Positions 8,213 to 58,487 of a stretch of 64,000 nt of DNA are shown one piece after another; the stretch's first letter is position 1; each line of letters starts with the position of its first letter. A program made the position numbers and the translations under genes. The notes under the pieces are model-generated. The model worked only from the letters and a program-made list of their open reading frames with translations. It did not search any database and had not been told where the DNA came from. The DNA is from Octopus sinensis (taxonomy: Eukaryota): contig NC_043006.1 of assembly GCF_006345805.1 (NCBI RefSeq), positions 46,934,001-46,998,000 on the forward strand. The letters are read 5' to 3'.

Positions 8213-8631
8213 AGGCGGGAAGCTGACAGAAACGTTAGCACGCCGGGTGAAATGCTTAGCGGTATTTCGTCCGCCGTTACGTTGTGAGTTCAAATTCCGC
8301 CGAGGTCGATTTTGCCTTTCATCCTTTCGGGGTCGATTAAATAAGTACCAGTTACGCACTGGGGACGATATAATCGACTTAATACGTTTATCTGTCCTTG
8401 TTTGTCCTCTCTGTGTTTAGCCCCTTGTAGGTAGTAAAGAAATAGGTAATTAATCTGCCGCTACGTTCTGAGTTCAAATTCCTCCGAGGTTGACTTTGCC
8501 TTTCATCCTTTCGGAGTCGATAAAGTAAGTACCAGTTGCGTACTTAAGTCGATGTAATAGGCTTAACCCCTTTGCCTGTTCTTGTTTGTCCCCTCTATGT
8601 TTAGCCCCTTGTGGACAATAAAGAAATAAGC
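8213..8631 (+). mobile_element. SINE family A, dimeric copy with TSD
   Basis: tRNA-like head (GGCGGGAAGCTGACAGAAACGTTAG; GAGTTCAAATTCC), core GCCTTTCATCCTTTCGGGGTCGATTAAATAAGTACCAG, and body repeated twice. Direct repeat ATAGTCTCTAGG at 8204-8215 and 8632-8643. Confidence 0.9.
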
Positions 8632-18390: not shown

Positions 18391-18813
18391 AAGGCGGCGA
18401 GCTGGCAGACACGTTAGCACGCCGGGTGAAATGCGTAGCCGTATTTCGTCTGCCGTTACGTTCTGAGTTCAAATTCCGCCGAGGTCGACTTTGCCTTTCA
18501 TCCTTTCGGGGTCGATAAATTAAGGACCAGTTACGCACTGGGGTCGATGCAATTGACTTCATCCGTTTGTCTGTCCTTGTTTGTCCCCTCCGTGTTTAGC
18601 CCCTTGTGGGTAGTAAAGAAATAGGTATTTCGTCTGCCGTTACGTTCTGAGTTCAAAAGCCGCCGAGGTCGACTTCGCCTTTCATCCTTTCGGGATCGAT
18701 TAAATAAGTACCAGTTACACACTGGGGTTGATATCATCGACTTAATCTGATTGTCTCTCCTTGTTCGTCCCCTCTGTGTGTAGCCCCTTTCTGGGCAGTA
18801 ACGAAATAAGAAA
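18391..18813 (+). mobile_element. SINE family A, dimeric copy
   Basis: AAGGCGGCGAGCTGGCAG head, then two tandem bodies joined at AAAGAAATAGGTATTTCGTCTGCCG. Confidence 0.9.
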
Positions 18814-27808: not shown

Positions 27809-27874
27809 TTAGCAAAAACAATAATAAGAATGATAGCAGCCAAGCAACTAAGAATCCGGAACGAGTGCAACGGT

Positions 27875-28015
27875 ACATTATTTACTTTTTGACGGATATT
27901 TGTCCTCAGCTTCTTTGTTGTTAGCACAACGTTTCGGCTTATATATCCTCCAGCCTTCTGCATGTGTACTGGGGAAAATTCGAACCTGGGTTCTCATTTC
28001 TGAGGTATTTTCGAT
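27875..28015 (-). mobile_element. Hammerhead-bearing body (Penelope-like), degenerate core
   Basis: Reverse complement of ~28839-28990: AAAATACCT.A..AATGAGAACCCAGGTTCGAA.TTTCCCCAG...GGCTGGAGGATATATAAGCCGAAACGTTGTG. Confidence 0.7.
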
Positions 28016-28020
28016 GATGC

Positions 28021-28089
<69 letters not shown>

Positions 28090-28160
28090 TATTATTATTA
28101 TTATATTATTATTATTATTATTACTATTATTATTATTATTATTATTATCATTATTATTAA
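28021..28160. repeat. (TAA)n switching to (TTA)n
   Basis: Direct reading; polarity changes at ~28088. Confidence 0.95.
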
Positions 28161-28716
28161 GAGAGAGAACAGTGCATGCCATCAAAGTAACACTGGGGTA
28201 AAATATACGAAGCCCAGTATATCCATCATCTCTACCCGTCTGATAAGGGTACATTAGGTATATGCATCCCAATCATATGTGTGTGACATGGTGATCTTAT
28301 ATAAAGGTAAACTGCATATGACCTTGTAGGTGGGAGCCAGTTAGAATTCACATCTGGACGAGTAACCTATCCTGCTCAAAAGGTCCCTGAATAAGGGTTG
28401 TTTAAAGATGTTGAACGAAACACTCATATTTCCAGAGGTGGATTATTCAAACCCCAAAGAATCCCTTTCAACACTTGGCTATGATGCCCTCCCCCACTAC
28501 TTCTGCTCGTGATCAGAGATGCACATATCGTCAGTCACTAAGAGACATGCTCAAATGGTTGAGGTCAATTAACTGACAAGGAAATATGTGGTACTGAGCA
28601 GAATATTTGCTGTAGCCCATCTTTTGTACCAAGAGAAAACAATGTACATGATAACACTTCTAATCAGTTAAGATCAGAAGTCACGAGAGCCACTACCTGG
28701 TACTGTATCAGGGTAT
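28161..28716 (-). mobile_element. ~556-bp ORF-less interspersed element embedded in (TAA)n
   Basis: Flanked on both sides by TTA arrays (TAA on the minus strand). Second partial copy at 9860-10022. No TIR or tRNA boxes seen. Orientation is inferred from the TAA polarity. Confidence 0.7.
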
Positions 28717-28750
28717 TCATTATTATTATTATTATTGTTATTATTATTAT

Positions 28751-28801
28751 GGGCATATGGCGTAGTGGTTAAGAGTGTTTAAGATTCCAGGCAGTGACAT
28801 A

Positions 28802-28838
<37 letters not shown>

Positions 28839-29021
28839 TCGGAAAAATACCTTAAGAATGAGAACCCAGGTTCGAAATTTCCCCAGGACAGCTGAAGAAA
28901 GCTGGAGTGTATAGCAGCAGAAACGTTCTGCTAACAGCAAACTGGATGAGGTCAAATATCTATCGCATGTAAATATTTTGAACAATGTACGTAATTCCTC
29001 ATCTCTCAAATATAGAACTGT
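28751..29021 (+). mobile_element. Composite: tRNA-like head, (TAA)n spacer, hammerhead-bearing body
   Basis: Head GGGCATATGGCGTAGTGGTTAAGAG...ATTCCAGGCAGTGACAT (same as at 43993), (TAA)n at 28802-28838, then a body with CTGAAGA (28892-28898), GCTG/CAGC stem and GAAACGTT. Confidence 0.65.
28889..28930 (+). ncRNA. Minimal type I hammerhead ribozyme-like motif (partly degenerate)
   Basis: CAG-CUGAAGA-AA-GCUG-(10 nt)-CAGC-A-GAAA-CG-UU-CUG: stem I CAG/CUG, stem II GCUG/CAGC, and palindromic AACGUU in place of stem III. The first stem II pair is lost in this copy. Confidence 0.55.
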
Positions 29022-30049
29022 AAGTGCAACTGTATCGGGACAGGAAACTCTAAGCAGCCGTTCATCCTTCTAGCAATAATAGCCAAATGCGTCTTAAAAT
29101 GCATCGTAAGTTTTTAAACCAAAGAAGGGTCTTAGACGTGTACACAACATGGCTGAATTATGAAGTTCGCAATTGACACGATCTGGGCGTGTTACGTTTG
29201 CATAGCATCAATGATAATTGATTCTGATCCTTGCCTTGCGTTAACGCATGCCTAGTGATGGAAAACTGGTCGGCGTAAATTGAGCGGAAGCCGATTGAGT
29301 AGAGTGTAGCGGTAATTAAAAGATCACGTCACGCACTGCTTTATGTTGATTATACATGAGAACTATCTAAACGGTATACGTGTCTATGGAATATTCAGCG
29401 TTATGGGATATCAGCGATAAGTGGATGAGTTGGTAATAGAGATAACCGAATACCCGTTCAAAATAATCGTTCAAAAGTATAAGGATGCATTTTACTGGCT
29501 CGTAGTTACAAGAATATGATAGCAGGAAAATATATTTAGGATTTTGTAATGTTTGAAAGCCCTTGAACAAAGTTCTTATTCAATAATGCCAAGCTGGTAA
29601 AATAACATTTGGTAATGACAACTAGAAAAATAAAAACAAACATCAACAACTAAATCGACGGAGAAATGTGACAACTTAGAGAAAAAGATTAACTGTAGCG
29701 ATGATAACATAGGCTGTAACAGCTACGCCTATATTTCCAAAATTACAACAAAAAGTCGACAGTAATAGCATTTACAGTTGTAACTACAAGAGCAAAAACG
29801 TCCCAAATCAGATGATTTTGTTTATTAGCTCGACATGCTTGAGATACTGCCAAGATTTCTCCGAAATCAAACAGCGTTACTTAGAGACGAAACAAGGATA
29901 TAGCAGATACTGAAGATAAGATAGATGGTACTTTCAATTGAATATAGTGTCTGTCCATCTTTTATCATAAGTGCGAATATTTTCCCGACGGTAAACTGGA
30001 GTGAAATTGCCTTTAGATGCTGGGGTACAACCCTAATATATTTTAAGTT

Positions 30050-43640: not shown

Positions 43641-43992
43641 GGTGAGAATTAATTATGTCCACTACAGTATATCAGATGAAGTTCACCTGAAGCTATTTCA
43701 AACAAATTTAGTCGCTTTACTTTCAATCAGAGATTAGGTATACGAGAAACAATGGTAGACGATATATTTTTGAAATATGTCGAATGAGACGCACCTTTTC
43801 TTATATTCAGATGTTTTACATTCTTGCAAGCTTGGTCAATGAAATCCAGAAATGAACGTGTCATATTTGCAGAAACGTTAGGACAACGAACTAGATATCA
43901 TATGAAGTTTGTTATTAGCATGAATTCCTGGCCAACACTGTTTACAGATCGCCAGAAACGATCATTCAGAAAGAAAAAATAAATATGCCCAC

Positions 43993-44082
43993 GGGCATAT
44001 GGCAAAGTGGTTAAGAGAGGGGGCTACTAACCCTAAGATTCTGAGTTCAATTCCAGGCAGTGACATGAATAATACTACTAAT
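43993..44082 (+). mobile_element. tRNA-like head with short TAA tail (same head as 28751)
   Basis: GGGCATATGGCAAAGTGGTTAAGAG...GAGTTCAATTCCAGGCAGTGACATGAATAAT; both A and B boxes present. Confidence 0.75.
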
Positions 44083-51457: not shown

Positions 51458-51669
51458 TGTTAGCGCGCCGGGCGGAATGCTTAGCGGTATTTCGTCTGTC
51501 GTTACGTTCTGAGTTCAAATTCCGCCGAGGTCGACTTTGCCTTTCATCCTTTCGGGGTCGATAAATAAAAGTACCAGTTTCGCACTGGGGTCGATGTAAT
51601 CGTCTTAATCCCTTTGTCTGTCCTTGTTTGTCCTCTCTATGTTTAGCCCCTTGTGGGCAATAAAGAAAT
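51458..51669 (+). mobile_element. SINE family A monomer, little diverged
   Basis: Near-consensus body and tail ending GGGCAATAAAGAAATA. Confidence 0.9.
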
Positions 51670-52379
51670 ATATTTTCCTCTCGTGAAGGAATACCTTCTT
51701 TGCTATGTGTTAGGTGGCTTTACTATACCCCTTAATTCACTCGATTCTATTAACCCTACTGATTTATATGAAGTTAGATGTATAAAAATAATGTTGTCCT
51801 AACAAGCAACATCATACTGGAAAGAAATTACATATCATTGCTGTCGACGCTCCTTCATGTTTTAACTTTTAACTTTTACTCAACTCCCGCTTGTATTCAA
51901 ACATTTCACGCTAATTTGGGCGTAATGGTTCCAGCTTAATTTCATTGCTGAAAGGAACCAGTAGAAATGTACTTATTTAAGATGTTTAAACATTTACATT
52001 TTATTCTATATGCTTACGCGAATGCCTATAAGAATTTCTGCACTATTATATATGAGAAAGAGACACACGAGAGTATACGTATATGTGTGTGTGAGCGTGT
52101 GTAAAATCACTTTGTTTATTGACGCGATATGTTATTTGCACTTGTTACATCTACGTTTGTTACGTGTTACTTTTACTTTATTTTATTAACACAACATCAA
52201 TCTGTAAGGATTTTCATTTCCTTAATGAACAAAGGTTTCAAATTGATTAAACACAATCGCTCCCATGTACCGAAACATTGCTACATATGAAACACCCAAC
52301 AAAAATACAACCTGTCTAGTTTACCCCAGTTTTTCTTTCTCTCTTTCCTTCACTCCCCCTCTCACATTCTATCTGTATG

Positions 52380-58091: not shown

Positions 58092-58487
58092 TCTTTTCTC
58101 CTCTAGGCACAACGCCCGAAATTTTGGGGGAGAGGGACAGTCGATTGATTAGATCGATGACAGTACACAACTGGTACTTAATTTATCGACCCCGAGAAGA
58201 TGAAAGGCCAAGTCGACCTCGGCGGAAGTTGAACTCAAAGACAGACGAAATACCTATTTCTTTACTACCCACAAGGAGCTAAATACAGAGAGGACAAACA
58301 AGGACAGACAAACGGATTAAGTCGATTATATCGACCCCAGTGCGCAACTGGTACTTATTTAATCGACCCCGAAAAGATGAATGGCAAAGTCGACCTCGGC
58401 GGAGTTTGAACTCAGAACGTAGCAGCAGACGAAATACTGCCAAGCATTTCGCCTTGCTTGCTAACGTTTCTCCCAGCTCGCCGCCTT
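58092..58487 (-). mobile_element. SINE family A, heterodimeric copy with 16-bp TSD
   Basis: Head, body and tail 1, then second body and tail 2. Direct repeat ATAATAAGATATATAT at 58076-58091 and 58488-58503. Confidence 0.9.

Follow-up and report, generated by a model that had tools for sequence, protein, structure and literature searches.

What is the unit formed by a tRNA-like head, a (TAA)n spacer and a body with a minimal hammerhead ribozyme motif, found in a 64,000-nucleotide stretch of the Octopus sinensis genome (contig NC_043006.1, positions 46,934,001 to 46,998,000; hereafter, the window)? An earlier note, made from the sequence alone, had described it as a separate non-autonomous element that RNA polymerase III (Pol III) would transcribe and that would be processed by its own ribozyme and mobilised by the reverse transcriptase (RT) of a Penelope-like element (PLE), in the manner of a short interspersed nuclear element (SINE) with an unusual tail. 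We found that head, (TAA)n and body together make up the pseudo-long terminal repeat (pLTR) of a Penelope/Poseidon-type element with an RT and a GIY-YIG domain, and not a stand-alone SINE. Taken as a whole, the reading of a tRNA-headed pLTR of a coding PLE, whose head is likely a Pol III promoter and whose short copies arise through internal priming by the RT, is in our judgement rather probable.

A terminal repeat of a coding Penelope-like element

Searches of the animal's own genome were performed on the 2.72-Gb assembly. At 25 of 30 loci chosen solely for an exact 25-mer of the head, a body was found on the same strand within 500 nt behind it, against 4 of 30 unselected (TAA)4+ arrays that served as a control. 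This anatomy is thus real and family-wide and not a product of chance, and the co-occurrence of the two parts in one orientation, which the earlier note had put forward as a check, far exceeds the expectation from independent insertion. The body was also present at 24 of the 30 best matches of the head, although two pairs of rows in that set look duplicated. TAA arrays do receive other repeats, and a body stood behind the 4 control arrays, but the constant orientation of the body behind the head, and their fixed order behind an open reading frame (ORF), already refute the idea that the two were inserted independently into one TAA array, and we give it next to no credence. A genome search with the body returned 3335 candidates, 40 of which were scored, and a 31-nt hammerhead motif had 2003 exact matches. 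The number of heads may be put at roughly 20,000, with a wide error, from 2447 exact matches and from the 3 of 27 heads that pass the exact pattern.

A GIY-YIG-like frame was found upstream of one body locus. Among 30 loci found with the end piece of this frame, 21 had a head approximately 170 nt further on, and in 17 of these 21, the body followed directly; the autonomous-type RT/GIY-YIG partner sharing the body, which the earlier note had supposed, thus exists. The ORF end is followed after about 35 nt by the head, then by (TAA)n, the ORF start with its hammerhead, and the rest of the ORF. The body, rightly recognised earlier as Penelope-like, represents the first ~55 codons of the PLE ORF: the 5′ majority frame starts inside it and is open across all of its 424 codons, and an 847-aa homolog with 56% identity has a similar hammerhead-encoded peptide at its start. 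At 4 of 30 body-ORF junction loci, the head-TAA-body unit continued into the ORF, and two of these sequences (L386 and L388) began at the start of the head and extended 340-430 nt into the ORF. Among the same 30 loci, L378 contains a head-to-tail junction running from ORF end through head and body to ORF start, and L383 is similar. The pLTR is therefore found at both ends of the ORF and contains the ORF start.

The single ORF contains RT motifs and a C-terminal CxC/GIY-YIG-like motif. For a 551-aa frame with the RT motifs, 1690 homologs were obtained, and among the 120 matches listed, RVT_1 (PF00078) or associated domains were annotated, in some cases together with GIY-YIG (PF01541). When homologs were compared with Pfam, P0064 passed for GIY-YIG and P0003 for RVT_1. 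Copies bear the insertion signature of PLEs, namely 5′ truncation, an inverted arm, a one-sided tail and a target-site duplication (TSD), and inverted, 5′-truncated arms are frequent among them. The 3′ ends of 94 copies were bimodal, 39 lying at body position 140-149 and 41 reaching position 170 or beyond. This distribution matches, by analogy, the two internal RT start sites and the tail described for Poseidon of Anolis (PMC11167929). The element is an endonuclease-bearing (EN+) PLE, the provisional clade label Penelope/Poseidon resting on domain order and motifs. Its own decayed copies speak less clearly for this assignment: two frames from the octopus genome had no Pfam match, and no intact full-length copy was seen. 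Searches of such frames against the Protein Data Bank (PDB) gave only weak RT matches (E 0.14-0.73). A control search for another PLE family in the same genome yielded matches of similar identity, many of them at loci already listed for the tRNA-headed family.

As a separate observation, a few nucleotides within the tail (majority body ~148-157) are complementary to a segment just behind the hammerhead (~107-116), and the two could form a stem-loop around the RT start sites.

The short copies could alternatively belong to an independent, non-autonomous Pol III SINE made of head and body that a PLE with a similar pLTR would mobilise in trans. Such an origin would agree with their SINE-like look, with the approximately 4:1 ratio of short copies starting at the head to read-through copies, and with their somewhat lower CpG decay at several sites. 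However, the same head-(TAA)n-body lies at both the ORF end and the ORF start of the coding element, and 50 ORF-linked and 51 short copies gave one majority sequence, with a divergence of 8.1 vs 7.6% in the head and 5.6 vs 5.0% in the body and with the same two non-CpG polymorphisms in both sets. Short and ORF-linked copies form one lineage, and no separate SINE lineage was found, so that the proposal of a distinct non-autonomous element gives way to that of the coding element's own pLTR. We regard the independent SINE as improbable; some short copies may still be re-transcribed, which would provide a possible side path. At the CpG of the B box (head position 56), decay was noted in 2 of 50 short and 14 of 49 ORF-linked copies, a difference uncorrected for ~220 tests, and the CpG sites of the body showed a similar trend.

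The head as a 5′ end and putative promoter

The 5′ ends of copies were counted at loci selected by neither head nor ORF, with 95 heads examined. Among the copies reaching the head, 52 of 63 ended between −16 and +6 relative to its start, that is, 0.036 ends per nt, compared with 0.003-0.013 in seven other bins. Similarly, 26 of the 30 exact-head loci ended no more than 20 nt upstream of the head, and exact 25-mers were found 2447 times genome-wide for the head against 657 times for the sequence just upstream (the head pattern allowed for CpG decay and the upstream pattern contained no CpG). Many of the ends at the head start adjoin unique flanking sequence without any fold-back.

At 5 of 30 loci (L379, L380, L381, L384, and L397), a 5′ piece of the ORF continued directly into a head whose start fell at −6 to +7. 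These joins are candidates for template jumps of the RT at the 5′ end of its RNA; they would be expected if the enzyme ran off the end of the RNA before jumping.

The family majority head has kept both its A box and its B box. However, it does not form a cloverleaf (z +0.8 and +2.3), and neither ARAGORN nor Rfam reported anything in 43 head loci. Its best match among a partial set of 27 distinct tRNA sequences of the same genome was Arg(TCT), with 51 of 76 positions identical, and this comparison does not establish Arg(TCT) as the source tRNA. RNase P-type processing at the head was considered and, given the missing cloverleaf fold, is unlikely.

The ribozyme processing proposed earlier was not supported. 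Both stems of the minimal hammerhead in the pLTR pair in 91% of the cells of the family alignment, but no covariation above that of shuffles was detected, as expected if the copies of one family are dead. No tRNA or hammerhead match at E ≤ 1 was obtained on two family loci. No peak of 5′ ends was observed at the cut site among 236 body copies (5 of 211 in its 5-nt bin, like the neighbouring bins), and an origin of 5′ ends through hammerhead cleavage was rejected on this count. Since cleavage would part the head from the sites at which the RT starts, head-bearing copies must derive from uncut RNA; uncut RNA has been described as the template in PLE retrotransposition (PMC11167929). The hammerhead may rather act on other RNA molecules or at later steps than on the templates of head-bearing copies.

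T tracts resembling Pol III terminators are scarce in the sense strand of the ORF. No run of four T (T4) occurs in the majority sense strand over ~2.9 kb (P 0.009-0.018 under codon nulls), and windows with four T in five nucleotides numbered 3 against 16.7 expected, a count as low as this being reached in 0 of 1500 codon permutations. No comparable loss affected C and G in the ORF. As controls, we used 80 other PLE loci, 34 of them with an open frame of at least 400 codons; T4 was present in 33 of these 34 ORFs (351 seen vs 323 expected), without overall depletion. Within the octopus genome, the observed/expected ratio for T tracts was 0.35-0.43 in family copies, 0.99 in other LINEs (long interspersed nuclear elements), and 0.92 in DNA transposons.

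Several points nevertheless temper a reading of this depletion as a Pol III constraint. The family copies in the last comparison are not independent, and R4/Dong-like LINE fragments are partly depleted as well (0.68-0.79). A-rich windows are low too (z −2.3), although less so than T-rich ones, and the ten 4-mers with the strongest depletion do not include TTTT. Codon junctions of the T|T type are depleted as well (17 vs 28.7); T-rich windows nonetheless remain low in permutations matched for these junctions (3 vs 12.2, n=23). Finally, one control ORF from a metagenome contig (L302) has no T4 and few T-rich windows (z −2.4), and no tRNA-like head was found within 459 nt downstream of it. The absence of T4 is by itself weak evidence, and T-tract depletion as a Pol III constraint is suggestive.

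The head could also be a captured tRNA or SINE fragment that is carried passively by an element with a Pol II promoter, the peak of ends arising from palindrome fold-back or from a coincident Pol II start. The main caveat to our interpretation lies here: the head start falls within a 5-bp palindrome, and fold-backs make up many of the junctions there, so that part of the peak may be due to self-priming. In rotifer PLEs, palindromes are known at the 5′ ends of the pLTRs, together with TATA/initiator-like motifs (PMC3846280). Moreover, pLTR promoters with introns are described for Penelope of D. virilis and for Chlamys-3 (PMC8557442), and the partial T-tract depletion of R4/Dong-like LINEs also speaks for a passive head. 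On the other hand, many head ends carry no inversion, and the 6-bp stem II of the hammerhead shows no comparable pile-up (0-5 ends per 5-nt bin, with ~200 at risk). The majority keeps its A and B boxes even though the cloverleaf does not fold, and T-rich windows are depleted even against the junction-matched permutations. On balance, we hold a passively carried head to be unlikely, though deserving of some weight.

From the position of the 5′ ends and the scarcity of T tracts in the ORF, the head probably serves as a Pol III promoter, and possibly as that of the full mRNA. Transcription would begin around the head start (about −7 to +1) and could continue through the ORF, since the sense strand has no T4 terminator. 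The RT would then use two internal priming sites, located ~130-165 nt downstream of the ORF start, internal priming having been shown for Poseidon of Anolis (PMC11167929). If an RNA initiated at the head were primed in its 5′ repeat, the RT would copy only head, (TAA)n and body, up to the RNA 5′ end, and yield SINE-sized copies, while priming at the downstream repeat would yield longer, ORF-bearing copies. RNA contigs covering the ORF, the head and the body occur in runs that carry the labels of two organisms, and single contigs bridge the ORF end and the head; these contigs carry no information on transcription starts.

R2 uses Pol I; autonomous retrotransposons are otherwise taken to use Pol II, and Pol III is associated with short non-coding parasites. 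We propose more tentatively, and with somewhat less than even confidence, that the octopus family is an autonomous coding retrotransposon transcribed end to end by Pol III, with an ORF purged of oligo-T, that sheds its own SINE-sized tips. A captured tRNA promoter in the pLTR would drive a ~3-kb RNA for RT and endonuclease, and tens of thousands of short tip copies would be shed by internal RT priming. Two considerations oppose a Pol III transcript of the full element: translation would be problematic for an RNA that Pol III leaves uncapped, and autonomous elements need Pol II in the argument of Kojima (PMC10886601).

The copy in the window

The features of the copy under study and of its surroundings are as follows.

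27864..27871, no strand: left copy of an 8-bp TSD, identical to the 8-mer at 29023-29030
27873..28016, minus strand: inverted, 5′-truncated pLTR arm, body only and without tail (133 of 155 aligned positions equal the family majority; similarity ends ahead of the tail)
28022..28159, no strand: (TAA)n/(TTA)n arrays separating the arms
28160..28713, minus strand: unrelated 554-bp repeat, probably a secondary insertion between the arms (matches in 25 sequences)
28714..28750, no strand: junction (TAT)n array
28751..28801, plus strand: tRNA-like head that keeps its A box (28758-28768) but has lost the B box and a portion of the anticodon arm (sequence and family alignment)
28802..28838, plus strand: (TAA)n spacer, (TAA)12, belonging to the pLTR (repeat analysis and family loci)
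28839..28990, plus strand: body, the PLE ORF start, with ATG at 28858-28860 and an embedded minimal hammerhead at 28887-28932
28991..29022, plus strand: one-sided PLE tail of ~32 nt (from the bimodal 3′ ends of 94 copies)
29023..29030, no strand: right copy of the 8-bp TSD, identical to the 8-mer at 27864-27871
43983..44072, plus strand: second, separate copy, an intact head behind a short fold-back junction, without body (78 of 87 positions match)

The A box reported earlier is indeed present in the tRNA-like head. The B box is missing as described, but the loss is larger than supposed, the head being 24 nt shorter than the family majority and lacking part of the anticodon arm as well. The sister head with an intact B box was likewise recovered as the separate copy at 43983-44072. 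It stands alone, as stated; the body said to occur alone is in fact the inverted arm, enclosed in the same TSD. Inspection of the junctions showed that one 8-bp duplication surrounds both arms, the plus-strand arm with a tail and the minus-strand arm without one, and a comparable arrangement of inverted arms, one-sided tail and duplication is known for Pen2a of rotifers (PMC3846280).

The window body agrees with the family majority at 155 of 176 positions. Its hammerhead has the core at 28892-28898, GAAA at 28920-28923 and a predicted cut after 28927. The ribozyme of this copy is predicted to be dead because it contains A.A in place of the G10.1-C11.1 pair, which is highly conserved in minimal hammerheads (PMC4209133); it also has one mismatch in stem I. 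Rfam (gathering threshold) and ARAGORN made no call anywhere in the window.

The 554-bp repeat between the arms has (TAA)n on both sides and many full-length matches at 74-89%, often within the TAA spacer of a head-body pLTR (L084, L142, and L250). As a guess, it could be a non-autonomous partner of a TAA-targeting R4/Dong-like LINE. LINE ORF fragments, presumably R4/Dong-like, occur in the window from ~4779 on the plus strand and also at L128, L156, L188, and L189. A repeat of ~184 bp, which resembles a CORE-type SINE, is abundant in the window, with several tandem dimers (8262-8628, 18441-18808, 51487-51670, 58153-58437, and others).

Relation to known elements and significance

Known EN+ PLEs, such as PAc of Anolis (PMC11167929), Pen2a of rotifers (PMC3846280), and the PLEs with minimal hammerheads (PMC4209133), share with the octopus family a single ORF with RT and C-terminal GIY-YIG whose start lies inside the pLTR. 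They also share the minimal hammerhead of type I, in which helix I is short, helix II long and helix III palindromic and an extra base follows position 9, as well as the inverted 5′-truncated arm, the one-sided tail of 30-40 nt, the 8-10-bp TSD and the uncut RNA template. The octopus pLTR differs in that it starts with an A/B-box head and (TAA)n, at which 5′ ends pile up, and that its ORF lacks T4; the available text on PAc, Pen2a and the minimal-hammerhead PLEs does not mention a Pol III promoter (PMC11167929, PMC3846280, PMC4209133). No tRNA-like head was found beside the ORF end in the 80 other PLE loci, many of which are on short contigs. One PLE of another organism (L294) was considered as a second case and rejected, because the tRNA-like match precedes a truncated ORF by ~420 nt and is not part of the repeats of that PLE.

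A Pol III promoter derived from a small RNA is also found inside the terminal repeat of TRIMp3 elements (Cassandra, Helenus, and Ajax; PMC10886601), for which an origin by insertion of a SINE into the repeat has been proposed; by analogy, such an insertion is a plausible origin of the octopus head. TRIMp3 are non-coding long terminal repeat (LTR) elements of 0.3-1.3 kb, whereas the octopus repeat belongs to a coding PLE of ~3 kb, and the autonomous partners of TRIMp3 are expected to use Pol II (PMC10886601). Where TRIMp3 are defined by two LTRs with a primer-binding site and a polypurine tract and by the lack of coding capacity, the octopus family is a coding PLE with inverted arms and a tail (primer-binding site and polypurine tract were not searched for). 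Tens of thousands of copies (a rough figure), a length of 250-300 nt and a tRNA head with A and B boxes recall tRNA-derived SINEs (PMC10886601). The 3′ part of the octopus unit, however, comes from the element's own RT gene, of which it is the 5′ coding end, and not from the 3′ tail of a LINE, and the unit carries the insertion signature of PLEs; the family head has the A and B boxes of a SINE, without a separate non-autonomous lineage or a shared LINE 3′ end. At its tip, the element thus behaves as a SINE or TRIMp3 would, although it is a member of neither group.

In the schistosome repeats SM-alpha and Sj-alpha, an apparent Pol III promoter is likewise followed by a hammerhead, but these are non-coding tandem repeats without an ORF, in which canonical active hammerheads release monomers (reviewed in PMC6765202). 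The octopus hammerhead is minimal and part of a reading frame, and the copies are dispersed or inverted. Metazoan non-LTR retrozymes also carry short type I hammerhead repeats related to the pLTRs of PLEs; they differ in being head-to-tail tandems processed into circles, and no tRNA head is described in the available text (PMC7229834; bioRxiv 10.64898/2026.07.22.740005). The release of tandem monomers by cleavage, which marks retrozymes and SM-alpha, does not describe the octopus copies, which are mostly single or inverted, head-to-tail pairs being exceptional (L053 and L057).

What is known here is the EN+ PLE, and what seems to be new is the tRNA-type head in its pLTR. No published tRNA-headed pLTR was found in the literature, with Repbase, Dfam, SINEBase, subscription papers and supplements outside the search, and an octopus repeat library (PMC13282606) may include the family.

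If the end-to-end Pol III transcription were true, the expectation that such elements use Pol II (PMC10886601) would be broken by a coding, high-copy PLE whose promoter is of tRNA type and whose ORF is free of terminators. It would also raise the questions of the route by which an RNA without a cap is translated and of a possible role in it for the hammerhead in the first codons. The retrotransposon would then be its own SINE, and this would be one route to SINEs and to Pol III-hammerhead repeats. The tRNA-headed family offers a genomic read-out for the internal-priming model of PLEs. For annotation, a large share of the genome that appears as 'SINE/tRNA' (roughly 20,000 heads, with a wide error) is actually the terminal repeat of a PLE.
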